Of a stretch of DNA of 48,835 nt, positions 1 through 48,835 are shown in pieces. The stretch comes from a virus (taxonomy: Duplodnaviria; Heunggongvirae; Uroviricota; Caudoviricetes), in IMG/VR virus record IMGVR_UViG_2740892051_000004, positions 1 through 48,835 of that record. One strand, given 5' to 3'. The translations under genes and the position numbers were made by a program. The notes beneath the pieces were generated by a model. The model was not told where the DNA came from, made no database searches, and saw nothing but the letters and a program-made list of their open reading frames with translations. Position 1 is the first letter of the stretch. The number at the start of each line of letters is the position of its first letter.

Positions 1-228
1 ATGAGCTTATTGCCTCGGGAAAACGCACCCCAAAAAAGATATAGACTTCTGAGAATATCAGAAGTGATTAATTTGACTGGCTTACCCAAGTCAACAATTT
101 ATCTAAAGATAAAGAATGATGAATTTCCGAACCAAGTTTCTATCGGTTCTCGTTCTGTTGCATGGGTGGAGCATGAAGTTAATGAATGGATAGAGAAGAA
201 TATTCTCAATAGAAAATTAAACTCCTAA
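1..228 (+). CDS. alpA: AlpA-family DNA-binding regulator (prophage CP4-57 AlpA-like)
   Basis: 75 aa; HTH core 'RLLRISEVINLTGLPKSTIY' and C-terminal 'VAWVEHEVNEWI' match the AlpA/Vis/Xis small winged-helix pattern. Confidence 0.75.
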   Translation: MSLLPRENAPQKRYRLLRISEVINLTGLPKSTIYLKIKNDEFPNQVSIGSRSVAWVEHEVNEWIEKNILNRKLNS

Positions 229-245
229 ATTGAGGTGGCAAATAT

Positions 246-1106
246 ATGGTTGACAATGTTTTTAAGAAGAAATTGGCATCAATTAAGAACGAACATGTGT
301 CGGTGTTAGATAGTTACAAAGTAAGATCATTTAAAGAGACTCATAGCGACACGGCCTGTATTGTGCGTATTATTGAAATATATTCACTGAATAAGCTGCG
401 AGCTAAAGGTGAAAAGCTGTATTCACTTACGGGGTTAACAGTACCTGATACGGAAACTGTGGCGAATGAGATCAACCTGCTCCTGAGCCGTTATGCCCAG
501 TTGTGTCGTCAGGAAGAGGAAGAGTTATCTTTCCGGCAGCGTGAAGTGACAAATGCGGAAGTTGCATGGAAAAGCACATTCTCAAAAAACGGCGTCAGTA
601 GCATTGCTGAAGCCAAAACGAATAAAATGGGGCATGCTGAACGAGCGGATGCTGAACGGTATTACCATCTGGCTGTTTCCCGGTTGAATGAACAACATAG
701 TCGATTGAGCACGATCAAGCTTTTGCCGGGAGTACTGGCCGATGAAGGAAACTACATTGGGAAGGGAATCGATAAGCGTTTACTGAATATATTTCCTCAA
801 TCCGGCCAGATCCCTGCTGATTTTATTTCTGTATTTAATGACAGTGACGTTGTCCGTGATATTAAATTTATTACTGATGCACTCAAGTCTTTATCTGATT
901 CCGTGAGTGAAATTATTAGTCGTTGTAGCGTTCCAACTGATCGTTATGTATTAAATAACGGTGGAATGGCAAGAGCTATGGCTTACAGGGAGTACTATCG
1001 AGCAGATAATTATGTATTACGTTCAGTCGTAAGTGACCGGGATTATGTTGAGCATGTAATGAAATACAATCTGGTTACTGAGTACAAAAATAAAATCTTT
1101 TCTTAA
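246..1106 (+). CDS. hypothetical protein; possibly capsid scaffold (GpO-like by position and size only)
   Basis: 286 aa ORF directly upstream of capsid-like gene in P2 O-N order; no recognisable motif. Confidence 0.45.
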   Translation: MVDNVFKKKLASIKNEHVSVLDSYKVRSFKETHSDTACIVRIIEIYSLNKLRAKGEKLYSLTGLTVPDTETVANEINLLLSRYAQLCRQEEEELSFRQREVTNAEVAWKSTFSKNGVSSIAEAKTNKMGHAERADAERYYHLAVSRLNEQHSRLSTIKLLPGVLADEGNYIGKGIDKRLLNIFPQSGQIPADFISVFNDSDVVRDIKFITDALKSLSDSVSEIISRCSVPTDRYVLNNGGMARAMAYREYYRADNYVLRSVVSDRDYVEHVMKYNLVTEYKNKIFS

Positions 1107-1128
1107 ATACTTAAAAAGGTGAAAAACT

Positions 1129-2133
1129 ATGTATGCCTTCAAAACTGAAAGGCCGGACGCAGCACGTCGTTATCATAATAAATTCGTCACTGGCACTAAC
1201 TATCAGGAAGAATCAAACAGACGCTTTGCATTAAGCGAACCTACTGAAAATATACTGCGTACCTCAATTCTGGAATCCGGGTGGCTTATTAAAAATATTA
1301 CCCTACGTGATGTTAACGCCGTGTCAGGTAATGCCGTCAATATTGGTGCCAGTGAACTGTATACCGGACGTGTGGATGGTGGCCGTTTCCACAAAAAAAT
1401 GGCAATCAATGGTACGGAGTTCTTTCTGACAGAGACGGATACCTGCGCCCGGATCAGCTATTCCGATATGTCTCATATTTACCATACCGGCGTGCCGGAT
1501 GAGTTTGAGAAAACGGTTGAGAGCTTTTTTGCCCAGGCATATGCGCTGGACATGCTGCGGGTCGGTTTCAACGGTGTGTCGATTGCAAATACTACAAACC
1601 CGGAAATCAATAAAAAAGGCGAGGATGTCAATATTGGCTGGCATGCACTGGCGAAAGCCTACGGGAACGGAAAGCAAATCATCTCTGAGCCTGTCACTCT
1701 GGGAGAGACTGGCACCTGGAAAAATATTGATGCTCTGGCCAACCATCTGATTACAGAGCTTATTGCTGAGCAGTTTCGTGAAGATCCTCGTCTGGTTGTA
1801 CTGGTTGGGGCAGAGCTGGCAGCACATCAACGCCTGAAGTTATTTAATGCCGCAGACCGCCCGTCTGATGTGAATGCGGCACAGATGGCTACAAGTTCTG
1901 TTGCTGGCCGCTTTGCGTTTATTCCCCCGTTTATGCCGGGTAAGCGTCTGGCAGTAACGACGCTGGATAATCTGCATATTTACACTCAGGCGATAACACG
2001 CTGGTTTCGTGCTGAGTTTGATGATGAAAGCAGTGAATACGTGCATTCCTACCTGCGCAATGAAGGTTATGCACTCGGTGAACCTGAACTGTACGCGGCT
2101 GTTGATGAGTGCACCCTGACGTTTGCGGATTGA
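1129..2133 (+). CDS. putative P2-family major capsid protein (GpN-like)
   Basis: 334 aa; segments 'GFNGV...NIGW...IDALA...DPRLVVLVGAELAAH' resemble recalled P2 GpN conserved blocks; needs HMM confirmation. Confidence 0.5.
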   Translation: MYAFKTERPDAARRYHNKFVTGTNYQEESNRRFALSEPTENILRTSILESGWLIKNITLRDVNAVSGNAVNIGASELYTGRVDGGRFHKKMAINGTEFFLTETDTCARISYSDMSHIYHTGVPDEFEKTVESFFAQAYALDMLRVGFNGVSIANTTNPEINKKGEDVNIGWHALAKAYGNGKQIISEPVTLGETGTWKNIDALANHLITELIAEQFREDPRLVVLVGAELAAHQRLKLFNAADRPSDVNAAQMATSSVAGRFAFIPPFMPGKRLAVTTLDNLHIYTQAITRWFRAEFDDESSEYVHSYLRNEGYALGEPELYAAVDECTLTFAD

Positions 2134-2176: not shown

Positions 2177-2271
2177 GCATCAGGAAAAATGAAGAACTAT
2201 TTTTAAGCAGAGGCTTAAGCATGCCAGCGTTAATTAATCCAGGCAATGATCAGTTTTCGGTTATAAATTTC

Positions 2272-2301
2272 TTGCCTCACCAGGAATGCGCGGGATATAG
2301 T
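2272..2301 (+). promoter_or_regulatory. candidate sigma70 promoter (P4 PLE-like) upstream of immunity region
   Basis: TTGCCT-N18-TATAGT upstream of seqA. Confidence 0.3.
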
Positions 2302-2332
2302 TTAAAGGTTGCCGCAAAATCGGCAGCCGGGC

Positions 2333-2356
2333 GTAGGAACCCGTGTTATCTGAAGG
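2333..2356 (+). promoter_or_regulatory. seqA-like target of CI immunity RNA
   Basis: GTAGGAA...TCTGAAGG; both arms exactly complementary to seqB (2510..2531). Confidence 0.5.
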
Positions 2357-2469
2357 CGATACTACACGCGCTAGGCGTGTTTTTTTGTGTCGCAGCTTTG
2401 ACTCACCTAAAATTTATGGTGTGGTGGCTGATTGTATTTTTTTATTTTTTACGCCACATCATCAGAATT

Positions 2470-2545
2470 ATGGTAGTCCAGGCGGGGCAGCTTTCGGGCT
2501 GGCCGGTATCCTTCAGAGCCGGTATTCCTACCCCCGTCTGGGCTA
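2470..2545 (+). ncRNA. P4-type CI immunity RNA (C4 antisense RNA-like) containing seqB; ends approximate
   Basis: seqB core CCTTCAGA-GCCGGTA-TTCCTAC at 2510..2531 is antiparallel-complementary to seqA and seqC; sits in a leader upstream of early ORFs as in P4. Confidence 0.45.
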
Positions 2546-2557
2546 CCACCCATGAGC

Positions 2558-2599
2558 GTAGGAACTCCGGTGGTAGCGTTACCCGCTATCTGAAGGAGG
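2558..2599 (+). promoter_or_regulatory. seqC-like target overlapping ribosome-binding site of first early ORF
   Basis: GTAGGAA...TCTGAAGG repeat of seqA, ending in AGGAGG 9 nt before ATG at 2608. Confidence 0.5.
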
Positions 2600-2607
2600 T
2601 TGCCATT

Positions 2608-2811
2608 ATGGCTACAGTCCCTGCTTTATCTCACCCTGAATTTACCTTTGTCTTTCTGGCTGTCCGCCGTACAGACCGTGATGCCCGTCCACGCCCTGTG
2701 CGTGTAATCGCAGAATGCGAGCATGCTGCACGCCTTAAACTTGCCACTGAATTTATCCTGAGCTTTGCTGCCCGTATCCCTGTGAAAAGAGCCGGGGAGG
2801 TGGTTGCATGA
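2608..2811 (+). CDS. hypothetical small early protein (satellite)
   Basis: 68-codon 3' part of track ORF 2221..2811 starting at internal ATG with AGGAGG RBS; upstream part of that ORF spans the RNA region. Confidence 0.5.
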   Translation: MATVPALSHPEFTFVFLAVRRTDRDARPRPVRVIAECEHAARLKLATEFILSFAARIPVKRAGEVVA

Positions 2812-3044: not shown

Positions 3045-3447
3045 TAATCAAAATTTAAAGGCGCATGCTTTACGAACAGCAGTCTTACGCTACTACATTG
3101 CTGATGCATTCATTTCCTTAATGGTGCGTGTTCATAATGAACCTGTTTATATTGAAGATGGCGAACGAATAGAACTCTCCCACGAAAAAGTGGTGAGTAA
3201 TATTATTTACCATATTGAAATGCCGTGGGTGAATGAGTTTGGGGCTGATGCTGGTTGCATACTGGCCGCAGAGAAACTGGAAAAAATGCTTAAACCAGGC
3301 TTTATGTCAGAAAATATTCGCCTGTCAGTTTTTGGTGTCACAGAGATGCGTGAGGTTTACCGGGATATTATTTTCGGAGCACCTGATGGCGAACTACCCG
3401 AAGGTTTTGAATTTGTGAAGCCGGAAGGTCAGGAGGTGCTGCTGTGA
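3037..3447 (+). CDS. hypothetical protein upstream of primase (position of P4 eps/orf151)
   Basis: 136 aa ORF overlapping primase start by 4 nt. Confidence 0.55.
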   Translation: MNNNQNLKAHALRTAVLRYYIADAFISLMVRVHNEPVYIEDGERIELSHEKVVSNIIYHIEMPWVNEFGADAGCILAAEKLEKMLKPGFMSENIRLSVFGVTEMREVYRDIIFGAPDGELPEGFEFVKPEGQEVLL

Positions 3448-6131
3448 AAACACCGTCTGTATCCACGATTTCCGGAGCTGCAATTGGGCGCTGGCCTTAT
3501 ATCCTGTCAGCATTAGGTATTAAAGTACCGTCCGCAGGACATCATGGGGCTTGCCCTGCCTGTGGTGGAAAAGATCGTTTTCGACTGGACGATAAAGCGG
3601 GGCGAGGGACGTGGTTTTGTAATCAGTGCGGTCATGGCGATGGTCTTGATCTGGTTCGTCTGGTGACAGGAAGAAAGATAAAAGAAGTCGCCGGGATGGT
3701 ATCTGAGGCGCTTGCATTACCAGAAATACAGGAGAAGCCCGCATTGCCAGCCAGGAAAAAGGCCGCAGGAAAAGAAGCGGGCGCGGAGCGATATACCAGA
3801 CTCAGACAGCAGTCCTGCAATGGTGAGCCGGTCTATCTGACAAATAAGAGCTTACACGGGTATTCACTTCCCTTGCTGTCACAGCCTTTGAATCTGGCCG
3901 GAATAACATTTTCCACCGGTTCATTACTGCTGCCTTTGACGGATATTTCCGGGAATATTACTGGTGGCCAGCTTATCAATCCTGACGGGGATAAAAGTCT
4001 GCTGCCCGGTAGCCAGCTGTCTGGCGCATTCATTGCCCTGACCGATATACCCGCTGAAACACCTGAACAGGTGATTATCACTGAGGGTTTTGCCACGGCG
4101 CTTACCGTCAGTCTGCTGACTGAAGGATGGATCGTGGCGGCTGTCGCTGCCACCAATTTACTGAAGGTGACGGAGCAGATCCGAAAACGCTGGCCGGAAA
4201 CCCGGATCATTCTGGCCGGAGATAATGATCTGGCTGACGGCAAAGAAAACACCGGGCGTATTCAGGCAGAGAAAGCCGCCAAAGCGGTGGATGGCTGGGT
4301 AACGCTCCCTCCGGTACGCCATAAGGCTGACTGGGATGATTATCGGCAGGAAGTGGGGAAAGAACGGGCGAGAGATGCCTTTCGTGAAGAAATGACGCTG
4401 CATGGCAAAGGGCAGACCCGTTTACCAGAAGGGTTCCGGCTGACAAAAGAATATTTGTGGTACGACAAGCTGGTTAATAAGTCTGATGGTGATACAGAGA
4501 TACGTAATATCAAAATTTGCAGTCCGTTGCGGGTGACGGCAATCACCAGTGATGCTGATGGAAGTAATTACGGGCGTTTGCTGGAATGGGAAGATACCAA
4601 CGGAAACAGCCGTAAATGGGCAATGCCGATGGAGATGCTGGGCGGTAGCGGGGAAGAACTGCGCCGCGTTCTGCTGGTTAACGGGCTTTCTTACATCAAC
4701 ATTAACGGCATGGCCAGAGCATTCCTGATGGAATATATCTCGCTGTGTAAACCGGACAGAAAAGTAACCTGTGTGAATAAAACTGGCTGGCACGGCGGGG
4801 TTTACGTTCTCCAGGATGAAGTGATAGGGCGCGAAGCCCAGTCAGTCATCTTACAAACATCGAGTGTGCAGGGGCGTGATTTTCGTGTCAGCGGCACATC
4901 AGAGGGCTGGCGTGAAAATATAGGCCGTTATTGCATAAAGAATGCCCGTCTTGCCTTTGCGGTGAGTCTGGCATTTGCTGCCCCCCTTCTGAAACTGGTT
5001 GGTATCGGCGGTGGAGGTTATCACCTCAAAGGGGAATCCACAGACGGTAAAACCACGACGATGAAAGTGGCTGCATCAGTATGTGGTGGAACAGATTTCT
5101 GGCATACGTGGCGGGCGACGGGGAATGCCTTAGAAGGAACGGCGAGCCGCCGCAATGATGCCACGCTGATGCTGGATGAAATCCGGGAGGTTGACGGCAG
5201 GGAGGCGGGAAATATCGCTTATATGCTGGCTAACGGGCAGGGCAAAGCCAGAGCCAGAACAGATGGTTCGGTAAGGGAAACCAACCGCTGGAATCTGTTG
5301 TTTCTGTCTACCGGGGAACTGTCACTGGTAGAGCATGCGGCAAGCGCCGGGGAACGTACGTATGCCGGGGTTGAGGTCAGAATGATCCAGATCCCAAGCG
5401 ATTCGGGCAAGTATGGCGTGTTTGAAGAACTTCATGGCTTCAGTAGCGGGAAAACCCTGGCTGAGCATCTTGAGCAGCACGTAGCGCATTATCATGGTGC
5501 ACCATTCCGCGACTGGCTGTATTGCCTGACCGCTGATCTGCCGGAACTGACCAGTCAGGCGAAAGCCTTATTGAAAGAGTATACCCGAAGGCTGACGCCG
5601 GAAAATGCCGGGAATCAGGTTGGCCGGGCTGTTACCCGTTTTGCTCTGGTTGCGATGGCCGGGGAGCTGGCCACAAAAGCGGGCATCACAGGATGGCCGG
5701 AGGGAGAGGCCTTTCGTGCCGCTCAAAGCTGTCTGGCTGCATGGATGGCTGACCGGGGCCATACAGCTAATCAGGAAGATAAAGCGGCACTTGAACAGGT
5801 TCGGGACTTCATGACGCGTAATCAGTTCAGTCGGTTTGCTGACTGGAATGACGACAGGAACCGGCCTGTTTCAATGATGGGATTCAGAAAAGTCGATAAA
5901 GGAGACAACGTGACAGAGCCGGTTGTGACGTTCTACGTTCTCCCGTCAGGCTGGAAGGAGATCTGTAAGGGATTTGACTCGCGTAAGGTGGCCAGGTTGT
6001 GTGTGGACGCGGGCTGGCTGAAACCCGGTGAAGATGGCCGGACGCAAAACAGCATTCGCCTGCCAGAAATAGGGCTTAAACGTGTGTACCAGTTCAATAC
6101 ACAGGTACTGGGAAGCGCTGAACCTGAGTGA
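3444..6131 (+). CDS. P4 alpha-type primase-helicase
   Basis: 895 aa; N-terminal zinc ribbon CPACGG...CNQCGH, TOPRIM-like 'ITEGF...ILAGDNDL', Walker A 'GESTDGKTT'. Confidence 0.9.
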   Translation: MKTPSVSTISGAAIGRWPYILSALGIKVPSAGHHGACPACGGKDRFRLDDKAGRGTWFCNQCGHGDGLDLVRLVTGRKIKEVAGMVSEALALPEIQEKPALPARKKAAGKEAGAERYTRLRQQSCNGEPVYLTNKSLHGYSLPLLSQPLNLAGITFSTGSLLLPLTDISGNITGGQLINPDGDKSLLPGSQLSGAFIALTDIPAETPEQVIITEGFATALTVSLLTEGWIVAAVAATNLLKVTEQIRKRWPETRIILAGDNDLADGKENTGRIQAEKAAKAVDGWVTLPPVRHKADWDDYRQEVGKERARDAFREEMTLHGKGQTRLPEGFRLTKEYLWYDKLVNKSDGDTEIRNIKICSPLRVTAITSDADGSNYGRLLEWEDTNGNSRKWAMPMEMLGGSGEELRRVLLVNGLSYININGMARAFLMEYISLCKPDRKVTCVNKTGWHGGVYVLQDEVIGREAQSVILQTSSVQGRDFRVSGTSEGWRENIGRYCIKNARLAFAVSLAFAAPLLKLVGIGGGGYHLKGESTDGKTTTMKVAASVCGGTDFWHTWRATGNALEGTASRRNDATLMLDEIREVDGREAGNIAYMLANGQGKARARTDGSVRETNRWNLLFLSTGELSLVEHAASAGERTYAGVEVRMIQIPSDSGKYGVFEELHGFSSGKTLAEHLEQHVAHYHGAPFRDWLYCLTADLPELTSQAKALLKEYTRRLTPENAGNQVGRAVTRFALVAMAGELATKAGITGWPEGEAFRAAQSCLAAWMADRGHTANQEDKAALEQVRDFMTRNQFSRFADWNDDRNRPVSMMGFRKVDKGDNVTEPVVTFYVLPSGWKEICKGFDSRKVARLCVDAGWLKPGEDGRTQNSIRLPEIGLKRVYQFNTQVLGSAEPE

Positions 6132-6413: not shown

Positions 6414-6686
6414 ATGAAGATGATGAGAATGTACTGCCCCACATGTCAGGCAGTAGCACGGATAGGTAAAACAAACAGGAAACACCCACAACTGTACGAT
6501 GTGTACTGCTATTGCTCTAATGTGGAGTGCGGTCACTCGTTTGTGATGAATGTTGCTTTCTCCCATTCCGTTAGTCCAAGCGCGCTGAACGGGCAGGGAA
6601 GGGTTAAAGAGCTGATTGATGCAATTCCACCCGAGGAACGGGAAAAGGCTTTAAAGTTGCTGCTGGCTGCGCAAAAGAATGGGTAA
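6414..6686 (+). CDS. Ogr/Delta-family zinc-finger late transcription activator
   Basis: 90 aa; 'CPTCQ...16 aa...CYCSNVECGH' C4 zinc finger as in P2 Ogr / P4 Delta. Confidence 0.7.
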   Translation: MKMMRMYCPTCQAVARIGKTNRKHPQLYDVYCYCSNVECGHSFVMNVAFSHSVSPSALNGQGRVKELIDAIPPEEREKALKLLLAAQKNG

Positions 6687-7365: not shown

Positions 7366-8247
7366 ATGAGTCATAATAAAAAGGAATATGCTAAATTTTT
7401 CCGTCGCCCCATTTTTTCATCCTTAGCAAAAGGTAAGGATATTTCGGATTTATTTGGGAGTTTTGATTCTTACTGCTATGAAACACTGTTTTCAAACAAT
7501 GATAATAATGAACATGAGATTTCACTAAGGGATTTATTTACATCATTATATGATTTTTTGCGTCTGAATTATAGAAATGAATATGTTTATAAGACAGCAC
7601 TTGTCAATAAAATAATATTCGGTAAGCACAGCCCAAAAACAAGTTCGTCGTCCATAGAGTTACCAATTAAAAACTCTATAGTGGATGTTGCGGTGTTTAA
7701 TGGTACGTCTACAGCTTACGAGATTAAGACAGAGTATGATTCACCAAAAAGGTTGATTACTCAAGCCCCTGATTATTTGGATGTTTTTGATAAAGTGTAT
7801 ATAGTTACACATCCAGAGTATGCAAGTAAATATTGTGCTTTAAATCTCCCCAGAGTGGGAGTTATGGTTTTGAATAAAAAAGATCAATTGAGTGTCATTA
7901 AGGAGGCAGATTCAAATATTGATTATATTAAAAGTGACAGCTTGTTTTCAGTTCTTAGAAAGGAAGAGTTCTTAGCTATAATAGAAGATTACACTTCAAC
8001 TAAAATAAATATGCCTAACGGATTGGTTTATGAATATTGTAAAGAGATATTCATGCAGATGCCATTAAACATAGCAAATAAATACTTTATCTCTGCTATG
8101 AAAAAAAGATGTAACGATAAAGTTTTTTTGGATTATATTTATTCTCTTCCAGCATGTTTACGTGTTTTAGGTTATGCAACACCATTATCAAGAAAGCAAA
8201 AAGAATTCATCATGAATTTGATGGATGTAAAAATTAAAATTTGTTGA
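7366..8247 (+). CDS. PD-(D/E)xK nuclease-like protein, first gene of AT-rich cargo cassette (candidate defense)
   Basis: 293 aa; 'SIVDVAVFNGTSTAYEIKTEY' gives D...E-x-K catalytic signature; Lys/Asn/Ile-rich, strongly AT-rich DNA. Confidence 0.7.
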   Translation: MSHNKKEYAKFFRRPIFSSLAKGKDISDLFGSFDSYCYETLFSNNDNNEHEISLRDLFTSLYDFLRLNYRNEYVYKTALVNKIIFGKHSPKTSSSSIELPIKNSIVDVAVFNGTSTAYEIKTEYDSPKRLITQAPDYLDVFDKVYIVTHPEYASKYCALNLPRVGVMVLNKKDQLSVIKEADSNIDYIKSDSLFSVLRKEEFLAIIEDYTSTKINMPNGLVYEYCKEIFMQMPLNIANKYFISAMKKRCNDKVFLDYIYSLPACLRVLGYATPLSRKQKEFIMNLMDVKIKIC

Positions 8248-8268
8248 TATCCTCAGGAGTTGTAAGTT

Positions 8269-9219
8269 ATGTATAGCCCATATTTGTATGCGAGAAGTAC
8301 AGAGTTATTATGCCTTAGGGACCTCGTTGCGAAGGGAGTTAGCCTAAATGGTCTGCTACCAATTTTAGAACCAATTAACGTCAATACGAGAAATTTATTA
8401 ACATGTTTAAATGTTTGGAATTCTGACATAATTGTTATCCTTAATCCTTATCAGGAAGATTTTTCTTCACACAATAACGTCTTAACTTTAAATCAAAATT
8501 TATCAAGTGTATTAACAAATAAAAATAATATCATCTCTGGATATCTTATTCAGCCCAATACAACGATTAATGATATTAATAATTGGTTGAATGCTAACTT
8601 AAATAGACGAGTTGCACTTCTATATGATAATCCATCATTATCCAACTCTGATATTCAGTTGTTGGCGACAAATCAATTGATTAGTTATCATGTTGTTTTA
8701 AATAATAAAATGCTTCCTAATCAGTGCGCTCTTCTTCCTTTGTCGAAGTTAATTATTATTAGCGATAACTTTAGAAAGTTAGCAAAAAATGCTGATTATA
8801 ATGGGCCGGAACTTTTCACGCACGCACATCAATTCGTGGGACAAAATTACTTAGGATTTGGCGATTATACAATTACTGGCCAGGTACTAGATCTTGGAGG
8901 TGGTCAACCTTCTGCTGTTGCCGCACATTTGGTGTTCAAGAATTTACAAGCGAATACAGTTTGGATTCGTCATTTTGTATCAAGCAACACGCAACGAGGA
9001 AGTTCAAATGTTACTGCAAAATTTTTAGATGTTTCAGATCAAATTACAAATCTTGTTCCCCAACATCCAACCCAGTTTGGCAGCAACATTGGTCTTAACT
9101 ATTATTATTACAATAGTCAACCAACTGTAAGGCATTTCCCTGGGTTGCCAAAAAACAAACAGTATCAAATTACTCACCATATTTGTTTCATGCTGGATTT
9201 AATAGCAGGTCGTATTTAA
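8269..9219 (+). CDS. hypothetical protein, second gene of cargo cassette (partner of nuclease-like protein)
   Basis: 316 aa, 21 nt after upstream gene, same AT-rich composition; N-terminus 'MYSPYLYARSTELLCLRDL'; 3' end overlaps integrase stop by 21 bp. Confidence 0.7.
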   Translation: MYSPYLYARSTELLCLRDLVAKGVSLNGLLPILEPINVNTRNLLTCLNVWNSDIIVILNPYQEDFSSHNNVLTLNQNLSSVLTNKNNIISGYLIQPNTTINDINNWLNANLNRRVALLYDNPSLSNSDIQLLATNQLISYHVVLNNKMLPNQCALLPLSKLIIISDNFRKLAKNADYNGPELFTHAHQFVGQNYLGFGDYTITGQVLDLGGGQPSAVAAHLVFKNLQANTVWIRHFVSSNTQRGSSNVTAKFLDVSDQITNLVPQHPTQFGSNIGLNYYYYNSQPTVRHFPGLPKNKQYQITHHICFMLDLIAGRI

Positions 9220-13657: not shown

Positions 13658-13673
13658 GGTTTTCTCCTGTTGA

Positions 13674-35735: not shown

Positions 35736-35776
35736 TTTTGGTGGGGCTTCGGCCCCATTTTTATTGGGAGAAGACA

Positions 35777-36407: not shown

Positions 36408-36416
36408 GGTGAATAA

Positions 36417-38536: not shown

Positions 38537-38991
38537 TGATTACATTCAAACCAACGCGAAACATCGACCTGATCGAAGCAGTCGGAAATCACCCTGACAT
38601 TATTGCCGGAAGCAACAACGGTGATGGATACGACTACAAGCCTGAATGCCGTTACTTTGAGGTTAACGTGCACGGTCAGTTCGGCGGCATTGTTTACTAT
38701 CAGGAGATTCAGCCGCTGACATTCGATTGCCACGCCATGTACCTGCCAGAGATTCGGGGATTCAGCAAGGAAATCGGGCTGGCGTTTTGGCGATACATTC
38801 TGACTAACACCACCGTTCAGTGCGTCACATCGTTCGCTGCACGCAAATTCCGCCACGGTCAGATGTACTGCGCAATGATTGGCCTTAATCGTGTAGGAAC
38901 CATCAAGAAATACTTCAAAGGCGTGGATGACGTGACTTTTTACAGCGCCACACGCGAAGAACTAATCGACTTCCTGAATCACGGGAGATAG
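38536..38991 (+). CDS. head assembly protein (P22 gp14-like)
   Basis: 151 aa, synteny. Confidence 0.55.
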   Translation: MITFKPTRNIDLIEAVGNHPDIIAGSNNGDGYDYKPECRYFEVNVHGQFGGIVYYQEIQPLTFDCHAMYLPEIRGFSKEIGLAFWRYILTNTTVQCVTSFAARKFRHGQMYCAMIGLNRVGTIKKYFKGVDDVTFYSATREELIDFLNHGR

Positions 38992-38993
38992 CC

Positions 38994-39686
38994 ATGTTAT
39001 ATGCATTTAAGCTGGGCAGAAAACTGCGCGGCGAGGAACCTTATTGCCCTGAAAAAGGCGGGAAAGGTGGCAGCTCTGATAAAAGCGCAAAGTATGCAGC
39101 AGAAGCTCAGAAGTATGCCGCAGACCTGCAAAATCAGCAGTGGCAGACGATCATGAAAAACCTTGCTCCGTTCACGCCTCTTGCGGAGCAGTATGTTAAC
39201 CAGCTTCAGAACCTTTCCAGTTTAGAAGGTCAGGGGCAGGCACTTAATCAGTATTACAACTCTCAGCAGTATAAAGACCTTGCAGGTCAGGCTCGTTACC
39301 AGAGTCTTGCTGCTGCGGAGGCGACGGGTGGACTTGGTTCGACAGCCACAAGCAATCAACTGGCTACGATCGCGCCGACACTCGGTCAGTCTTGGTTATC
39401 AAATCAGATGAGCAATTACAACAATCTGGCAAACGTTGGGCTTGGTGCTCTGCAAGGTCAGGCAAACGCCGGGCAGACGTACGCCAACAACATGAGCAGC
39501 ATTGCACAGCAAAGCGCAGCTCTTGCCGCTGCTAATGCCAATAAACCATCAAGTCTTCAGACTGCAATTAGCGGTGGCACGTCTGGTGCGATTGCCGGTG
39601 CAGGTCTTGCCAGCCTTTTGGGAACATCAACGCCTTGGGGCGCTGGCATTGGTGCTGGTATCGGATTGCTTGGCTCGTTGTTTTAA
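38994..39686 (+). CDS. ejection protein (P22 gp7-like)
   Basis: 230 aa Gln/Ala/Gly-rich with C-terminal glycine-zipper TM-like segment. Confidence 0.6.
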   Translation: MLYAFKLGRKLRGEEPYCPEKGGKGGSSDKSAKYAAEAQKYAADLQNQQWQTIMKNLAPFTPLAEQYVNQLQNLSSLEGQGQALNQYYNSQQYKDLAGQARYQSLAAAEATGGLGSTATSNQLATIAPTLGQSWLSNQMSNYNNLANVGLGALQGQANAGQTYANNMSSIAQQSAALAAANANKPSSLQTAISGGTSGAIAGAGLASLLGTSTPWGAGIGAGIGLLGSLF

Positions 39687-39695
39687 GGGGTAATA

Positions 39696-41027
39696 ATGGC
39701 TACTTGGCAAGGATCAAATGGCGGATTGTTGGCTGGTATCGGCGGCGTCAACTCAAACGCTCCGAGCGTAAATGACATCGGCAATACGCTTCAGCTTATC
39801 AGGCAGAACAATGATATTGAGCGTTCAGGCGCTAACAATGTTGGGCTGACTGCTTTGCAAGGCCTTTCAGGTATTGCAGGGGTGTTTCAGCAGGAAAAGC
39901 AGGCTCAGCGGCAGAAAGAATTTCAGCAGGCGTACGCTAATGCTTATGCGTCTGGTGATCGCGGTGCTTTGCGTCAGTTGGCTACTCAATATCCAGACCA
40001 GATTGAATCCGTTCGTAAAGGCATGGGATTCATTGATGAAGACCAGCGCAATTCTATCGGCACCTTAGCTGCTGGCGCACGCCTTGCTGCCTCGTCTCCA
40101 GAAGCAATGCAATCATGGCTGCAAAACAACGCCGGTGAGTTAGCTCGTGTTGGCGTTAATCCTCAGGATGTCGCTCAGATGTACCAACAGAACCCGCAGC
40201 AGTTCGGCGAATTTGTCGATCACCTGGGGATGGCCAGTCTCGGACCCGAAAAATACTTTGACCTTCAGGATAAAATGCAGGGTCGACAGGTGACTATGCG
40301 CGGTCAGGATCTGGATTCGCAAACCGCCGCCCGGAATCAGGCAATCACAATGCGTGGGCAAGATATCCAGGCAAATTTAGGTCAGCAGCGCATTAATCTG
40401 GACGCAGAAACAAACCGCATTAACAACGAAAATAAGCACCTTGACCGGATGCTATCAGCAGAAACTAACGACCTGAAGCGCCAGGAAATACAGAGCCGCA
40501 TAGCAGCCAACAACCAGAAGTTGCAGCAGAAGCAGCAAGAGCTAAATGATGGCTACAAAGACGGCATCAACACTCTCACAACCAGCATGTTCACTCTGAA
40601 CGATATCGTTAATTCTCCTGCACTTAAGAGCATTACAGGCTTACGTGGAGCAATCCCCAACGTTCCAGGCTCACAGGCTGCAGACACTCAGGCACGACTT
40701 GATACCTTTAAATCCCAAGCATACCTGACAGCGGTTCAGGCCATGCGAGGCATGGGCGCACTTTCTGATGCCGAGGGCAAAAAGCTCGACCAGGCTGTTG
40801 GTTCGCTGCAGAACTCGCAGAGCGAGGAGTCCTTTCGTCGCAACGCTGGCGTCATCCTGAACACGCTCAACCAGAAGCGTAATGAGGCGGTTGGTAAGTA
40901 CGTTCAGCAAAACGGTATCAAGCGAGTGGAAGCGCCTCAGGCTTCTATAGATTACCTGAAGCAGCACCCAGAGCTGTCAATCGACTTCATTAATCGCTAC
41001 GGATATCTTCCATCTTTGGGGCAGTAA
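39696..41027 (+). CDS. ejection protein (P22 gp20-like)
   Basis: 443 aa, synteny. Confidence 0.6.
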   Translation: MATWQGSNGGLLAGIGGVNSNAPSVNDIGNTLQLIRQNNDIERSGANNVGLTALQGLSGIAGVFQQEKQAQRQKEFQQAYANAYASGDRGALRQLATQYPDQIESVRKGMGFIDEDQRNSIGTLAAGARLAASSPEAMQSWLQNNAGELARVGVNPQDVAQMYQQNPQQFGEFVDHLGMASLGPEKYFDLQDKMQGRQVTMRGQDLDSQTAARNQAITMRGQDIQANLGQQRINLDAETNRINNENKHLDRMLSAETNDLKRQEIQSRIAANNQKLQQKQQELNDGYKDGINTLTTSMFTLNDIVNSPALKSITGLRGAIPNVPGSQAADTQARLDTFKSQAYLTAVQAMRGMGALSDAEGKKLDQAVGSLQNSQSEESFRRNAGVILNTLNQKRNEAVGKYVQQNGIKRVEAPQASIDYLKQHPELSIDFINRYGYLPSLGQ

Positions 41028-43763
41028 ATGGCTAATTACCGTGATTTGTTAGAGCAGGCTGGCGCACGTTACGGTGTGCCAGAAGGGTTGATGACTGCAC
41101 TGGGTGCCAAGGAGTCTTCTTACAACCCTGCAGCAGTAAGCTCCTCCGGGGCTGTAGGATTGACTCAGGTTATGCCTGGGACATGGCGTGATATGGGTTA
41201 TACCGATGAGCAAATGCAAAACCCCGAATATCAGGCTGACGCTGGCGCGCGCTATCTGGCAAAGATGTACCAGCAGTTTGGTAACTGGCGTGATGCTCTT
41301 CAGGCTTATCACGACGGCCCCGGCAACGTTATGAAGGCAAAACGTGGTGAATATACGCCAGGACCTGAAGGCCGCGGTTACGTTGATGATCGCTTTGCTC
41401 AATGGGCGGGTGACCCGGTGACAGACTCAACAGTCGAACAGCGCGCCACCTCTGCAAAGGTACATCCTCAGCAAGACCCTAACAACCCGTTTGCACAACT
41501 GGAAGCACAGTCATCCGAACAAGTATCGGCATCAGGTGTGCAGTCAGACCCAAATAATCCATTTGCTCAGATTGAGCAGCAGGCAGCCAGTCAGCAGCCA
41601 CCTCAACCCGTAAGTTCTGTCGCACCGAAACCTGTTCAGCAACAAACAGTTAATCAGGCCAATAATGCACCAACACGGGAAGAACCATCATTGATGCAAC
41701 AAGCTGGCGATTGGCTCACTGGTGGTCAAAGTGCAGGGCAAATTGCAGAACAGGCTGGTCGTGGTCTGGTAAACATACCATTTGACGTATTACAGGGTGG
41801 CGCAAGTCTGATTAATGCAATCAGCCAGGGGCTCGGTGGCCCCAAGGTTTTGGATGATGTTTATCGCCCTGTCGATCGACCGACAGACCCTTATGCGCAA
41901 GCTGGAGAGTCAATAGGCGGTTATCTTGTTCCTGGAGCAGGTGTAGCTGGAAACATGGTCATTGGTTCTCTCGCTGACGCGGCGAATCAACGGGGTGATT
42001 TTGCCGAAAATGCCGCTATTAATGCCGGACTTAACATTGCTACGCATGGCCTGATAAATGGCGTTACCCGTGGTGTTCGTGGTGCATCAAATATAATTAG
42101 TGGCAATAAAACATCTGCACAGAGAGCGACCACTGCGCCAACAGAAACATCACCATTCTCCGGTGATGCCGCAGAGGCAACAAATCCTGCGGTTCATGCC
42201 GCAGAGGCAAGAGCAGCACAAGGTGTACCAATGACTCCTGCGACGAGGAACCCAGAGGAAGTCGTTCGCACAGTAGCAGCACAAAAAAGGCCAAATCTCG
42301 CTTCATCGCTTGATGAACTAGATATCAATCCTCAGGCTGAAGTTCTGGAGTCTGCTGAAAGGCTTAATGTTGATTCATTACTCCCTTCACACTTTTCCGG
42401 GAACGAGCAATACAAGGCAGTTGAGCAAGCAATCAAGTCCCGTGCGGGTTCTGCTCTACAGGTGCAGGAAAATGAAGCAATCAGGCAGCTAGCACAGGGT
42501 GCGGGGGAGATAATTGATCGCGTTTCCGGTGCAAAAGATGCTCTTGGTATGAGCGACAAGTTTATTGATACGGTCAATGGAAGAATGTCTGCGCTGATGA
42601 AACGAAGCGACCAGCTTTATCGCAATGTTGAAAAGGCGATGCCTGCAGGTGCAAAAATTGATGCGCCATCAACAAGGTCAATGCTCAAACAGGTGGCAGA
42701 AGATCTTGGCGGGATGAAAAACCTTGACCCTATTGAAAAGAGAGTCTTTCGGGCAGTTAATCCAGGCAAGAACGGCGCATTAACTTATGCAAATCTCAAT
42801 AAGCAACGACGACTTGTTGGTGATGCACTTCATAAGAATTCTGGACCATATAAAGATGCTGATCGCGCTGCTTTATCGAGGCTTTACGGTTCGCTCGCCG
42901 ATGATCAAAAGGCGGCGCTGTCAGAGACAAATGCATTACGTGATTTTGAAGTTGCTCAGAGGCTTGTTCAGATGCGAAAAAGCATGGAAGAGCAAATGAT
43001 TAATCTAACTGGCAGAACGCTGAACGGTGATGTTTCTCGCAAAGCAACTACAGCACTACAGGCAATGTCGAAAGGCGATGCCAAAGGATTTCGTGAATTG
43101 ATGCAAAACACGCCGTCCAGGAAGCTAAGAACCGAGCTACTGGGAACAGGTCTTCGTGATATGCTTTCGAACGGAAAACGTGGCGCTGATTTTAATCCTG
43201 CAGGGTTTGCTGACTGGTATCAAAACATGTTAGCAAACGGGCAGATGCGCAATCTTGCCCGACATTTACCAAAAGAGACTATGTCAGGTCTGAACGATGT
43301 ATATAAGGTCGCAAAGGCTATCAAAGATGCAAAATCTTACGAGATAACTACAGGAAGACTAAACGAGTTCGTCAAACGGTTTAATCGCGTCACTGCGGCA
43401 AATGAATTTGTTGCTAACCATGCCCAACGCATTGGCACTGCGGTTGGTTCAACTGTGTCAGGACCGTTCAGTGCAGTAGGTGCTGTTGCTGGGTCAGAAA
43501 TTGGGGCAAAAGTCGCCAGCAAAATTAGGGCGATGGGCGGCGCTGCATCAATGGAATCTGCAGAAAAGCTAATTAGCTCACCAGAATTCCAGAAAGCAGC
43601 AAGGTTGGCAGTAAGACAAGCACCAGAAAGCATCGTTGATACAACTGTAAGACGCTCTTCTGCTTGGCGCTCGTTTTACAACTCACTTCCAGAATCAGAT
43701 AAGAAAACCATATCAAGGCTAGGCATCATGTACTGGATGAACAGTGATGATAACCAGAAGTAA
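41028..43763 (+). CDS. ejection/injection protein with N-terminal lytic transglycosylase (SLT) domain
   Basis: '[28 protein letters not shown]...YLAKMY' SLT catalytic Glu motif; 911 aa. Confidence 0.75.
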
Positions 43764-45394: not shown

Positions 45395-47569
45395 ATGACA
45401 GACATTACAGCCAATGTTGTGGTGAGCATGCCTTCGCAACTCTTCACTATGGCCCGCTCTTTTAAAGCCGTAGCTAATGGCAAAATTTATATCGGTAAAA
45501 TTGACACTGACCCAGTAAATCCTGAAAACCAGATTCAGGTTTATGTGGAGAATGAAGACGGTTCTCACGTTCCTGTTTCGCAACCAATAATCATTAACGC
45601 TGCTGGATATCCGGTATATAACGGACAGATTGCCAAATTCGTAACCGTGCAAGGCCATTCTATGGCTGTTTATGATGCGTATGGTACACAGCAGTTCTAT
45701 TTTCCGAATGTGCTGAAGTATGACCCGGATCAGTTTAAATTACTTATTGGCGGTACAGATGGTAGTAAATATATCGGTTTCGGCGCTTCAACGGTTTACG
45801 ATGCAATCAGGAAAACACCTCAATACTATGGAGCTAAAGCAGATGGATTGACATCAGATTCTGATGCCATTAATGCCGCAGCATTAGCTGCTTTTAATAA
45901 TGGTGGTGGGGAAATATTTTACCCTCCAGGTGTTTATTTAATAGATTCTCCTATCATTCTTTATACAGGCGTTCATCATAAAGGCTCTGGAAAGAGAGCA
46001 ACATTTCTGTATGTTAAAAAAGGTAGTAATACAGATGTATTTAAAACACATGGCTTTGGCGTTGTGGAAAATCTGTCTGATGCGCCATATGGATTTAGCA
46101 TAAAAGATATGACCATTGATGGTAATTATCTTGACTTGCAAAGAGATACAAACTCATGGAGAACTTGCGACACTGTTAACAATGACTATGGAACTGCCAT
46201 TAAAATATTCGGCAGCATGTACCATATTGACGTTGAGATTAATAATGTTGCAGAACATGCTCTCTATTCAGAGGGGTATGGATCATTTCATGATAATCAG
46301 GAACACGCCTCTGAAGTGAGGATAACGGGGAGAATTTCAGGGAGAGAGGGGGTTGTGTTCAGGGGGCCAGGTGATATTAACCTGGATTATATTGTTTTTG
46401 GCCTGTGTGGACTTCCTCCTTACAGCGCAAGATTAACAGCAACAAGCCAACAAAGCCTTCTTTATCCAGGAGAACCATGTCATGGAATTGTTCTTGATAA
46501 TCAGTCTCCTTATACAGGACATGTCGATATAAATTACATCCATGTATATGCCGCGTATTATGGCTATGGATTTAAGACGCTGGGTGTTAACCGATTTAAT
46601 GCGAGGCATGTGTGTGTTGATAATAGTTTAGGTGGTTACTGGTTTACCAACGGGGCACATGGTGTTGTTGCCATCGCAGAAGCCAGGGCGTGCGGAAGAA
46701 TGCCAGATAACTACACTGGCGATTCAATTTCTCCTCTCCGCGACATGCTTCTGGATAACGGTACAATCTGGACACTTAACATCAATATAAAAGCACAAAG
46801 ATATTCACCTTCAATTGATGATGATGGGTATCAGATAGCTATATCAGGCAACAACAATGTAGTTACAATAAACCAAATCGGTCAGTTGCAGAGTGACAAT
46901 GCCCCTATTAAAGCCTCGCTTCTTTCTGTTACTGGTGACAATAACAATGTTACTTTTACATCCAAGAGGATAAAAGGAAATTTATGTTACTTATCCGGCG
47001 GTGGTAATAATATAAGAGGTTCGTGTGATAATTTGTTTTCGGGTTCTGCTCTTATTCGCGATGCAGTAAATTCAACAACAATTTGTTTTGCGAACAGCGT
47101 AGATATAACTGCGAAGGGGCTTTCTTCTGATTGCACTGGATTTAACAGCATTGGCACATGTGCATCAGAGAATATAAGATTAATCACTTCAGGCGCAAAT
47201 GGTTATAATAGGTTTTTAGGTGATAGAATGGCAGCCCTTAACAGGACGTGTACGTGGACGATTATGGCAACAGTTGGAAACTCAATAAATGGGAAATCAA
47301 CTGACGATTATATTGAGTGGAATATGCCAAACCCAACAGGTAGCGAATCTAACGAGGTTGATATTGAGCATAATTTTCTGTATGCCCCAACACCAAACCA
47401 GATTGCTGTGTTGGGGTTTAGACAACCTGCTGGTTCTGCAGAAGGTGCAACTTTAAGTCCAATAGAAATTATCGGAACTCCAAGTGAGTCTTCTTTCAGA
47501 ATTAGATACCATTGGTCAGGCCCTTTATCTTCTGGCTCTGCTCCAATTGTAATGTTCAGGATTAGATAG
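45395..47569 (+). CDS. tailspike protein (P22 gp9-like head-binding domain + divergent receptor-binding domain)
   Basis: N-terminus '[18 protein letters not shown]...[37 protein letters not shown]...LKYDPDQF' matches P22 tailspike; remainder AT-rich and unrelated. Confidence 0.85.
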
Positions 47570-47619
47570 AATTAATTGATATTTTAAAAAATTAAATTAT
47601 TAGTTGATAAATTGTATGC

Positions 47620-47665
47620 GCAAGGCCTGTAACTTGAGTGCCAGGCCTTGCATGTTTTCATTGAT
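47620..47665. terminator. terminator between tailspike and integrase
   Basis: GCAAGGCCTG-N12-CAGGCCTTGC 10-bp stem followed by T-rich tract. Confidence 0.5.
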
Positions 47666-47677
47666 TTTTAAGATGGT

Positions 47678-48835
47678 TCACTCCACCTTTTCATCAAGCC
47701 AGTCCGCCCACCATTGCATCATTTCTCTGCGCTTATCGAGATACTGAGCATGGTTGTAAATTCCACGTACAGATCCGCCGTTGGCATGTGCCAGTTGCAC
47801 TTCAATGGCGTCGGCAGGCCATTCGTGCTCGTTCATAATCGTGCTGAATTCATGCCTGAATCCGTGACCGCTTTCCAGCCCCTCATAGCCGATTTGTTTG
47901 ATCACAAGCAATACCGCGTTCTCGCAGATTGGTTTCTTCTTATCGTTGCGCCCGGCAAAAACAAACTCTGAGACTGGTTTGGTGATTGAGCTTAGCGTAG
48001 TAAGAAGTTCAACCACCTGGTCTGACATAGGAACCACATGAATTTTGCGTCCCTTCATCACACTGGCGTCGATGGTGATAATCCTGTTTTCAAAATCGAC
48101 GTTCTTCCATTGCATGGAGCGAAGCTCTTTCGTTCTTAGGGCTGTGTAGCGTAAAACTTTGGTCGCAATGAGCGATACGATACTTCCTGAAAATGTTGCC
48201 AGTGCTTTGTTGAATGCCGGGATCTGGTCTGCAGGAAGAAACGGGAAGTTCTTCTTGCGGTATCCCTTCATGGCGTCAGCAAGGTCAGGTGCCGGGTTAT
48301 ATTTAGCCCTACCAGTAACAATAGCGTAACGAAAAACCTCGCCGCATCTTCTGCGGGCTTTGTTGGCTCGCTCCATTGCACCGCGATCTTCAAATCTGCG
48401 GATTACTTCCAGCAGTTGCATCGGCTCAATATCCTGAATCTCAAGACCGCCGATGATGGGTAAAATGTCGTCATCAAACATTTTGGCAAGTTCAGTTGCA
48501 TAGCCTACTGACCAGACTTGCTTCTTGTGCTCGTACCATTCCTTGTAAATCGCACTAAATGAATTGTTGTTAGACGAAGCCTTTTTCGCCTTTACCGGAT
48601 CGATGCCAACCGAGATGTCTTTCCTCGCAGTCCATGCCTTATCCCTTGCTTCCTGCAAAGTCATAAGCGGATATTTTCCGACGGTCAGGATTTTCTCCTT
48701 ACCGTCAATCTTGTAGCGAAGCTGCCATACCTTTTTCCCTGACACAGGGACATAAAGGTACAGGCCATTACCATCGAGAAGGCGGTATGGTTTTTCTTTT
48801 GGCTTTGCTGCTTCAATCTGCTTAACGGTGAGCAT
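47678..48835 (-). CDS. int: tyrosine integrase, P4 family (second copy); start codon at window edge
   Basis: 385 aa; paralogous to 9199..10374 ('RRRCGEVFRYAIVTGRAKYNPAPDLA', 'HGFRHE', 'RGIYNHAQY'). Confidence 0.9.
   Translation of the reverse strand: MLTVKQIEAAKPKEKPYRLLDGNGLYLYVPVSGKKVWQLRYKIDGKEKILTVGKYPLMTLQEARDKAWTARKDISVGIDPVKAKKASSNNNSFSAIYKEWYEHKKQVWSVGYATELAKMFDDDILPIIGGLEIQDIEPMQLLEVIRRFEDRGAMERANKARRRCGEVFRYAIVTGRAKYNPAPDLADAMKGYRKKNFPFLPADQIPAFNKALATFSGSIVSLIATKVLRYTALRTKELRSMQWKNVDFENRIITIDASVMKGRKIHVVPMSDQVVELLTTLSSITKPVSEFVFAGRNDKKKPICENAVLLVIKQIGYEGLESGHGFRHEFSTIMNEHEWPADAIEVQLAHANGGSVRGIYNHAQYLDKRREMMQWWADWLDEKVE

Follow-up and report, generated by a model that had tools for sequence, protein, structure and literature searches.

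Phages of the HK620/Sf6/KplE1 recombination type carry attP between the excisionase and integrase genes (PMC2951348; PMC8787464), with the consequence that TorI and IntS lie at opposite ends of the integrated prophage. This has been described for Kapi1, in which int and xis finish at opposite prophage ends (PMC8787464), whilst the core of KplE1, the CPS-53 element of E. coli K-12 (Panis et al., PMC2951348, PMC3509656), has been published as the 16-nt sequence CTGCAGGGGACACCAT (PMC2951348). Here we analysed a stretch of 48,835 nt from a caudoviricete virus record (IMGVR_UViG_2740892051_000004), referred to below as the window, in which a prophage of this type adjoins a second element. The window holds two mobile elements and not the three proposed in a first-pass annotation: a P4-related satellite and a complete P22-like prophage, with one integrase apiece. 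The host site is the 3′ end of the E. coli tRNA-Arg gene argW, between yfdC and dsdC, and it is very probable that this tRNA-Arg(CCU) att site is occupied in tandem by the two independent integrative elements. The order at the locus would be dsdC side, satellite, prophage and argW, with window 1-10533 assigned to the satellite together with Int1 and window 10550-48835 to the prophage together with TorI and IntS:

1..228, plus strand: AlpA/Vis-like HTH regulator, 75 aa (PHROG excisionase/transcriptional regulator)
246..1106, plus strand: all-helical protein, 286 aa, directly upstream of the satellite capsid gene
1129..2133, plus strand: P2-family major capsid protein homologue, 334 aa (PF05125, E=9.5e-67, full profile; phrog_70 major head protein)
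2221..2811, plus strand: Ash/Icd-like protein (PF10554; NF033153 Icd-like)
2808-3044 and 3037-3447: small ORFs preceding the primase-helicase gene
3444..6131, plus strand: primase-helicase with Zn-ribbon, Toprim and DUF927 (domain and PHROG searches)
6414..6686, plus strand: Ogr/Delta-type zinc-finger late-gene activator (PF04606; phrog_603)
7366..9219, plus strand: cargo pair of an sce7726-family gene (7366-8247, P4 cII-like) and an sce7725-family gene (8269-9219), from NCBIfam
9199..10374, minus strand: Int1, P4-family tyrosine integrase, 391 aa from ATG or 407 aa from an upstream TTG
10375..10533: int1-proximal att arm of the satellite, with TATACAC-type repeats as candidate Int1 arm-type sites
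10534-10549, minus strand: att core, written ATGGTGTCCCCTGCAG in the window, where the published 16-nt KplE1/HK620/Sf6 core appears in reverse complement
10550..10622: attR arm of the prophage, in which TTTTACCC occurs twice (candidate IntS arm-type sites)
10623-10823, minus strand: TorI, recombination directionality factor (excisionase), 66/66 identical to K-12 TorI
10843..10858, plus strand: argW T-arm copy GGAATCGAACCTGCAA, 16 nt, just upstream of torI
11157..19025, minus strand: early-left operon and immunity region (Ea22-like, Abc2, exonuclease-like, SSB, Erf/Rad52-like)
17226-17765, plus strand: SieB-related gene within the early-left/immunity region
17788-18090, minus strand: N
18375-19025, minus strand: CI repressor
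19106..25990, plus strand: early-right region (Cro, CII, O, DnaB-like P, nin region, Q)
26054..26209, plus strand: phage-borne tRNA-Asn(GTT) and tRNA-Thr(TGT), the same pair as in Kapi1 and in genomes EC32 and OZ040950
26452..43763, plus strand: lysis cassette and P22-type virion genes (terminase, portal, scaffold, coat, gp10, tail needle, ejection proteins)
45395..47569, plus strand: tailspike, convergent with intS
47620-47651: terminator-like hairpin in the tailspike-intS gap
47678-48835, minus strand: IntS, the prophage's own integrase, complete, 385 aa, 384/385 identical to K-12 IntS

The boundary between the two elements is the att core at 10534-10549, which is situated between int1 and torI. 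Read on the opposite strand it is the 3′ end of argW, matches the published KplE1 core exactly and is identical to the att of Kapi1 (PMC8787464); an exact-match search of the window returned this single copy. The arm motifs switch at the core, from the TATACAC type on the satellite side to TTTTACCC on the phage side: TATACAC occurs three times in the window, twice inside 10375..10533, with two further copies in the distal arm of the satellite, and TTTTACCC has three additional occurrences upstream of intS and has TAAA in common with the published P′ sites. Each arm is also found next to the core in other genomes, 10375..10533 being identical to the int1-argW spacer of E. coli JJ1886 as far as the core and 10550..10622 adjoining the core beside dsdC in the prophage-only genome EC32. 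The middle junction would be a hybrid of satellite arm, core and phage arm, and the crossovers of both integrases would fall within one 16-bp stretch at the argW 3′ end. With the core in between, Int1 does not, contrary to the first-pass annotation, head the prophage, and torI begins 73 bp from the core at the prophage end opposite intS. Repeats of att or of a tRNA 3′ end, sought near 9.2 kb and 47.6 kb as had been suggested, were not found: int1 overlaps the stop codon of the sce7725-family gene by 21 bp, and the tailspike-intS gap contains the terminator-like hairpin only. Nor does the window hold a tRNA or tmRNA gene as integration target, its sole tRNAs being the phage-borne tRNA-Asn and tRNA-Thr; these were rejected as targets, as they are prophage-internal and conserved in Kapi1. 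The argW T-arm copy at 10843..10858, which has a counterpart at the corresponding position in K-12 CPS-53, EC32, OZ040950 and phage Kapi1, is a relic within the recombination module.

As argW and the distal att of the satellite lie outside the window, the outer junctions are inferred from related loci and from a single public contig of identical sequence. To the left, where the window begins at the ATG of the AlpA/Vis-like gene, the distal att copy is expected about 475 bp before position 1 as ATGGTGTCCCCTGCAGGAAT, followed by dsdC-side sequence. To the right, where the ATG of intS is the last codon of the window, attL and argW are expected about 160 bp past position 48835; modules of this type have intS immediately after argW and the intS promoter within attL. 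The public contig (L014) matches window 39395-48835 (the last 9.4 kb) at 100% identity and continues beyond intS with 160 bp, the core, tRNA-Arg(CCU), yfdC, mlaA and fadL; the 160-bp attL arm and argW likewise follow intS in EC32, OZ040950 and K-12. Because this contig runs into argW, yfdC and mlaA, no third element begins at the window end. The second integrase had been described as opening another element and running off the window: it does stand directly after the tailspike terminator, but its 385-aa ORF is complete, it belongs to the prophage and it is followed in the contig by chromosome.

In agreement with the first-pass annotation, the two integrases are related P4-family proteins encoded on the minus strand: both exhibit Arm-DNA-bind_3, Phage_int_M and Phage_integrase domains, they share 45% identity, and they are 40% (Int1) and 35% (IntS) identical to P4 Int, whilst IntS is 99% identical to Kapi1 Int. 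The satellite had been thought to lack an integrase in the window; Int1 is in fact its own. In JJ1886, int1 directly adjoins argW together with the satellite and the prophage is absent, and in Klebsiella Int1 is kept at the same position of the satellite backbone. At the prophage-only loci (EC32 and two others, L018 and L019), int1 is absent. The gene would be located at the tRNA-proximal end of the satellite and transcribed away from the att site.

The region between the two integrases had been regarded as a complete prophage, and its P22-like gene content bears this out. PHROG searches revealed lambdoid early regions together with a P22-type virion module (portal, scaffold, coat, gp4/gp10/gp26, ejection proteins and a tailspike with head-binding domain); the early-left/immunity region at 11157..19025 contains no integrase gene. 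In megablast searches CUS-3, Kapi1, Sf6 and Sf101 matched at 93-97% identity over 36-62% of each queried prophage half, and the 26452..43763 region is similar at the nucleotide level to CUS-3, Kapi1, Sf101, IME10 and Sf6. The element is a complete P22-like prophage (Lederbergvirus) of the HK620/Sf6/KplE1 recombination type. After integration TorI would come to lie beside attR (at 10.6 kb of the window) and IntS beside attL and argW (at the window end). The free-phage record of Kapi1, linearised at att, runs from the excisionase to tailspike, integrase and att, and in phage Dewey the tailspike and integrase both fall within the matched region.

The two elements are found separately as well as together. 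JJ1886 contains the satellite alone, in the order dsdC, AlpA through Ogr/Delta, sce7726, sce7725, int1, argW and yfdC, flanked by a 20-bp repeat; the satellite with Int1 adjoining argW and no prophage is present in several hundred other E. coli genomes and also in Klebsiella, where the same backbone terminates with the integrase followed by argW T-arm sequence. At least 80% of window 1-10500 was detected in 421 genomes. The prophage alone is present in EC32, in the order dsdC, core, torI through tailspike, intS and core-argW, with IntS as sole integrase; K-12 CPS-53 has the same end structure, and at L018 and L019 the same torI end adjoins csc/dsd genes. The tandem junction itself occurs in 13 of 5426 complete genomes and in L016, and six genomes exhibit the reverse order (dsdC, torI to intS, core, satellite to int1, argW). 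A second tandem genome carries the satellite at 100% identity but has only 51% of the prophage sequence in common, a sign that phages were acquired separately next to a satellite already in place. The general idea of serial integration of independent elements at a single hotspot was right, with the argW 3′ end as the hotspot; the count and partition of the elements were not.

It is extremely improbable that the window comprises an integrase-less satellite (1-9219), a lambdoid prophage (9199-47600) headed by Int1 and a third element that integrase 2 would open. Such a division takes its appeal from an uninterrupted minus-strand series of int1, torI and early-left genes that looks like the lambda int-xis-early-left order, and from the location of integrase 2 after the tailspike terminator; it assumes a lambda-like int-xis arrangement. 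However, the att core separates int1 from torI, int1 travels with the satellite without the prophage and the prophage without int1, in Kapi1, a free phage, IntS and the tailspike are neighbours within the genome, and argW and core chromosomal genes lie directly past intS in the identical contig; the discovery of the elements singly and in reverse order already refutes it. There is one internal att copy, and each of the two integrases is assigned to one of two elements. We also regard as very improbable that the whole is one composite unit with two integrases, moving through its outermost att copies: recombination between the outer copies is conceivable in that all three att copies share the 16-bp core, and the same tandem recurs in the 13 genomes, yet the parts occur singly and in both orders, the genome with an identical satellite shares only about half of the prophage, and the two outer sites differ both in the element that supplies the arm and in the arm motif. 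At ~49 kb the unit would exceed the ~39-kb genomes of the related P22-like phages among the matches and, given the established limits on headful packaging, should be too large for a P22-type head.

With two independent elements as the preferred reading, the most likely order of arrival is the satellite first beside argW and the IntS phage second. The satellite would already have occupied the place next to argW that it has in many ST131 genomes, and the phage would then have entered the reconstituted argW, displacing the satellite from the tRNA. Had the phage come first and the satellite later entered its attR (a partial argW copy on the dsdC side), the resulting arrangement would look identical, and the 16-bp core of attR carries most of the 20-bp identity block of the satellite; this sequence of events is nevertheless unlikely, given that attR lacks the tRNA body, that the satellite is 100% identical to the lone argW-side copy of many ST131-type genomes and that the neighbouring prophages differ among tandem genomes. 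A reverse-order genome moreover has a decayed IntS remnant in the tRNA-distal position and an intact satellite in the tRNA-proximal one, which fits the newest element lying next to the tRNA. Each element should still be able to excise independently, since it retains a core copy and its own arm at both sides, although excision of the satellite might be impaired because the middle junction carries only 16 bp of its 20-bp repeat.

P4 remodels the capsid of its helper and cf-PICIs encode a full head module; the core set of P4-like satellites consists of int, alpha, alpA, delta, epsilon, sid and psu. The satellite-like character of 1-9219, recognised from the outset, is upheld by domain, NCBIfam and PHROG matches. 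In addition to the integrase (40% identity), the element resembles P4 in the AlpA/Vis-like protein (46% identical to P4 orf88; its Klebsiella homologue is Phage_AlpA), the Ash/Icd-like protein (58% identical to the P4 cI-region ORF by blastp) and the N-terminal 320 aa of the primase-helicase (38% identical to P4 alpha). It also shares with P4 and P4-like satellites the Ogr/Delta activator, integration at a tRNA gene and a variable cargo slot beside int containing a cII (sce7726)-like gene. This slot, the interval between Ogr/Delta and int, is occupied here by the cargo pair of low GC content (32-36%), which matches 'cll' in PADLOC, P4 cII itself being annotated as sce7726 family; the Klebsiella satellite holds different genes in the same slot, and in JJ1886 ISEc23 is inserted just upstream of the pair. 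A literature search on sce7725/sce7726 function returned nothing specific. The satellite differs from P4 in its target argW, in a helicase part of DUF927 type instead of the alpha C-terminus, and in having a P2-family capsid homologue and the helical 286-aa protein at the sid/psu position. Sid, Psu and epsilon of P4 gave no blastp match at E<=1 and have no Pfam/PHROG equivalent in the satellite, and the P2/P4 cos 19-mer was absent from it with up to 3 mismatches allowed. Due to the absence of sid, psu and epsilon matches the element is, judged by its sequence, P4-related and not canonical P4-like.

The capsid protein is 48% identical to that of ESSI-2-like P2 phages and 25% identical to P2 gpN. 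Its 286-aa neighbour has no match in Pfam, PHROG, NCBIfam or PADLOC, and its homologues are confined to Enterobacterales, all without names; a confident AF2 model (pLDDT 86) exhibits a long helical hairpin, for which Foldseek against the PDB returned only non-significant coiled-coil matches (E>0.1), and the position of the gene suggests a scaffold-like role. The Ogr/Delta activator together with the P2-family coat points to a P2-like myovirus as probable helper; no P2-like prophage lies inside the window, and the adjacent P22-like prophage is an unlikely helper for a satellite carrying these two genes. Tentatively, and with more doubt than conviction, we propose that the satellite represents a widespread uncharacterised Enterobacterales branch of P4-related elements in which its own P2-family major capsid protein and a dedicated scaffold-like 286-aa partner replace Sid/Psu. 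If so, capsids would be built from the satellite coat, would probably be small, and would borrow portal, terminase and tail from the P2-like helper: a third capsid strategy, intermediate between P4 and cf-PICIs. A literature search for P4-like satellites encoding a capsid protein found no specific description.

The main value of these results lies in correct annotation. Prophage and satellite finders, as well as human readers, tend to pair phage-like genes with whichever integrase is closest. This rule breaks down for HK620/Sf6/KplE1-type phages, whose int and xis are at the two ends of the prophage, and where tRNA sites are crowded elements are then wrongly delimited and wrongly counted. As a clean example from nature, the locus shows two 45%-identical integrases with one common 16-bp crossover region in argW, and the four occupancy states in public genomes (either element by itself, or the two together in either order) could serve for studies of arrival order and cross-talk between Int/RDF pairs.

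Compared with the known systems, the recombination module is that of KplE1/CPS-53: core, IntS (384/385) and TorI (66/66) correspond, intS is the argW-side gene and torI the dsdC-side gene, and the argW T-arm relic lies upstream of torI in both. KplE1 itself is a 10.2-kb remnant without immunity region, whereas here the module is part of a complete ~38-kb P22-like prophage, and attR is flanked by the satellite instead of dsdC. With Kapi1, HK620, Sf6, CUS-3 and IME10, temperate P22-like Lederbergvirus phages integrating at argW, the prophage shares the layout from att onwards (excisionase, early left, immunity, replication, nin/Q, tRNA-Asn/Thr, lysis, virion, tailspike and integrase). It is nevertheless a mosaic in relation to them, ~46-60% being shared with any single one, and differs in its tailspike and immI region. 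As in other tandem arrays at tRNA genes, related integrases use one tRNA 3′ end and direct repeats separate the elements. The argW-dsdCXA island of E. coli, reportedly described as variable by Moritz and Welch in 2006, varies in occupancy among strains, and the window presents one particular pair of occupants. The tandem at argW is thus ordinary, well-understood biology, already known in kind, and leaves current understanding unchallenged.

The window was parsed by ORF listing, tRNA search and base composition, which revealed three blocks:

1–9219, plus strand: gene module with a low-GC tail at 7.3–9.2 kb
9199–10374, minus strand: integrase gene int1
~10.6–47.6 kb: lambdoid/P22-like genes, with the second integrase gene, intS, beyond them (47678–48835, minus strand)

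The first-pass annotation had described a complete prophage between two paralogous, same-orientation integrases of the P4 family, with a satellite-like module to the left, and this description holds: Int1 and IntS share the Arm-DNA-bind_3/Phage_int_M/Phage_integrase architecture, are 45% identical to each other and show 40% and 35% identity to P4 Int, respectively. IntS matches K-12 IntS at 384 of 385 residues, and its ORF is complete, with the start codon as the last codon of the window; the second integrase thus does not run off the window, as had been supposed. The same annotation had read the region as three elements serially integrated at one hotspot: the hotspot and the serial integration stand, whilst the number of elements and the attribution of the integrases were wrong.

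The spacer beyond int1 reads ...GAAGTGTTC / ATGGTGTCCCCTGCAG / ACATCTACTT..., with a 16-mer core at 10534–10549 that is the reverse complement of CTGCAGGGGACACCAT. [quoted passage not shown] The core is present as a single copy in the whole window, with up to 3 mismatches allowed. Repeats of this kind, which the first-pass annotation had suggested looking for at about 9.2 and 47.6 kb, are absent there: at the former the stop of the sce7725 gene falls within int1, and at the latter only a terminator-like hairpin lies between tailspike and intS, which are convergent. Directly to the right of the core lies torI (66 codons, 10623–10823, minus strand), the product of which is identical at 66/66 residues to K-12 TorI, the KplE1 excisionase.

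Four occupancy states of the E. coli dsdC-argW-yfdC region were found. In strain JJ1886 the satellite stands alone, in the order dsdC, AlpA-like gene, 286-aa protein, P2-family capsid, Ash/Icd, primase, Ogr/Delta, (ISEc23), sce7726, sce7725, int1, tRNA-Arg and yfdC, bounded by the 20-bp direct repeat ATGGTGTCCCCTGCAGGAAT; at least 80% of window 1–10500 is present in 421 of 5426 complete genomes, mostly at ≥99% identity. The prophage stands alone in EC32 (dsdC, core, torI through P22-type virion genes and tailspike to intS, core-argW, yfdC), with IntS as its sole integrase; K-12 CPS-53 has the same ends, and in two further assemblies (L018 and L019) the same torI-end genes adjoin csc/dsd genes without int1. 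The tandem order of the window recurs in OZ040950 and assembly L016, and a junction search placed it in 13 of 5426 genomes. The reverse-order junction was predicted beforehand, built as a chimeric sequence and then searched, and it was recovered in 6 genomes; G3X16-2 carries dsdC, torI, a decayed remnant, intS, core, satellite through int1, and argW. These four states show that [AlpA...int1] and [torI...intS] are two separable units. In L018/L019 (12639–17482) the TorI end adjoins csc-sucrose-like genes rather than dsdC, called from Pfam as a LacY-type permease, PfkB kinase, GH32 hydrolase and LacI-type regulator, which shows that the dsd side of the argW site varies further.

Thus int1 does not head the prophage: the core lies between int1 and torI, and the EC32 prophage lacks int1. 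The record of the free phage Kapi1, linearised at att, runs from excisionase to tailspike and integrase; with attP located between int and xis, these genes come to lie at the two ends of the prophage, an arrangement shared by Sf6, HK620 and KplE1 (PMC8787464). Nor does the satellite lack an integrase of its own, int1 being joined to it both in JJ1886 and in Klebsiella, where the backbone is the same, the cargo between Ogr/Delta and int is different, and argW T-arm sequence comes after the terminal integrase; this marks the integrase as a conserved gene of the backbone. A third element opened by intS is contradicted by public contig L014, which is 100% identical to window 39395–48835 and continues beyond intS with a 160-bp attL arm, the core, tRNA-Arg(CCU), yfdC, mlaA and fadL: at least in that genome, chromosome alone follows intS.

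Short repeats differ between the two flanks of the core. TATACAC-type motifs lie on the satellite flank at 10375 and 10402 (3 copies in the window), with two more in the JJ1886 satellite distal arm; on the phage flank, TTTTACCC is present at 10609 and 10621, and EC32 has three additional copies upstream of intS. Published IntS P' sites have TAAA in common, which is contained in GGGTAAAA. Candidate arm-type sites of two distinct integrases would look like this. The middle junction is a hybrid with one arm from each element and, judged by sequence, Int1 and IntS, members of one subfamily, use a common 16-bp stretch at the 3' end of argW. An exact 16-nt copy of the argW T-arm, GGAATCGAACCTGCAA, is found at 10843–10858, just upstream of torI and 293 bp from the core, so that pieces of argW 3' sequence lie on both sides of torI. 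K-12 CPS-53, EC32, OZ040950 and Kapi1 all keep this copy, which may be a relic of a longer ancestral attP identity block that was split by the insertion of torI. Some ten genomes match a junction query (10440–10640) only from query position 55, at 88–90% identity, which points to further elements that have a related int-proximal arm and are likewise placed in tandem with TorI-type prophages at argW.

The satellite probably settled at argW first, given that lone copies in many genomes are 100% identical to it, as is the satellite of a second tandem genome, in which only 51% of the prophage is shared; the IntS phage would later have integrated into the reconstituted argW. G3X16-2, with the decayed remnant tRNA-distal and the intact satellite tRNA-proximal, agrees with a rule under which the newest element lies beside the tRNA. 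Since each element retains its own arms and core copies, independent excision would be expected, and loss of the phage would restore a JJ1886-type locus. The satellite's Ogr/Delta activator and P2-family coat make the adjacent P22-like prophage an unlikely helper.

The gene content of the prophage is complete for a P22-like temperate phage:

Left end: TorI, Ea22-like, Abc2, exonuclease-like, SSB and Erf/Rad52-like proteins
Superinfection exclusion, regulation and replication: SieB-related protein, N, CI, Cro, CII, O, DnaB-like P, nin genes, Q
tRNA and lysis: tRNA-Asn, tRNA-Thr, holin, endolysin, spanin
Virion: terminase, portal, scaffold, coat, gp10, tail needle, ejection proteins
Remainder: Arc-type immI region, tailspike, IntS

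It is a mosaic of CUS-3, Kapi1, phiv205-1, Sf6, Sf101 and IME10 segments at 93–97% identity. Between N and the early-left operon, the opposite strand carries the SieB-related superinfection-exclusion gene (17226–17765).

Two satellite genes deserve separate description:

246–1106: 286-aa protein without family assignment, just upstream of the capsid gene
1129–2133: P2-family major capsid homologue (full-length PF05125, E=9.5e-67)

The capsid homologue is 48% identical to those of ESSI-2-like phages and 25% to P2 gpN. Homologues of the 286-aa protein are confined to Enterobacterales, and its AF2 model is confident and all-helical, with no match to folds in the PDB; the pair is kept in Klebsiella, Enterobacter and Salmonella. 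Upstream of the AlpA gene, just left of the window, lies a (CCCAG)n microsatellite (loci L001, 11669–11728; L004, 40–150), whose estimated ~11 units in JJ1886 and ~24 in OZ040950 indicate strain-variable copy number; such variation could influence the activity of the AlpA-capsid operon promoter. A 680-bp non-coding stretch (6687–7365) separates Ogr/Delta from the cargo genes, and ISEc23 (JJ1886) and other insertions break the satellite at or near it in other strains. By analogy with P4 a cos site had been expected here, but the window contains no P2 cos 19-mer. The cargo pair (7366–9219, GC 32–36%) comprises sce7726-family (P4 cII-like; PADLOC 'cll' match) and sce7725-family genes, for which no functional literature was found, and fills a variable slot between Ogr/Delta and int that holds a DprA-like protein and a hydrolase in Klebsiella relatives. 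P4 itself carries gop-beta-cII in the corresponding position, and the slot is probably one for anti-phage cargo.

The tandem arrangement is of a known kind, combining a known recombination module with a common satellite. With P4 the satellite shares AlpA, a cI-region ORF, a primase domain, the Delta-type activator, the integrase and the cII-like cargo gene, whilst sid, psu and epsilon were not detected in it. A limited literature search returned no description of a capsid-encoding P4-related satellite; given the limits of that search and how common the element is, its novelty is uncertain, and it is the only lead with some novelty. Unlike P4, it encodes the P2-family capsid homologue and the 286-aa protein in place of sid/psu/epsilon, in a gene order that mirrors P2 gpO-gpN, and this position makes a dedicated scaffold a possible role for the 286-aa protein.
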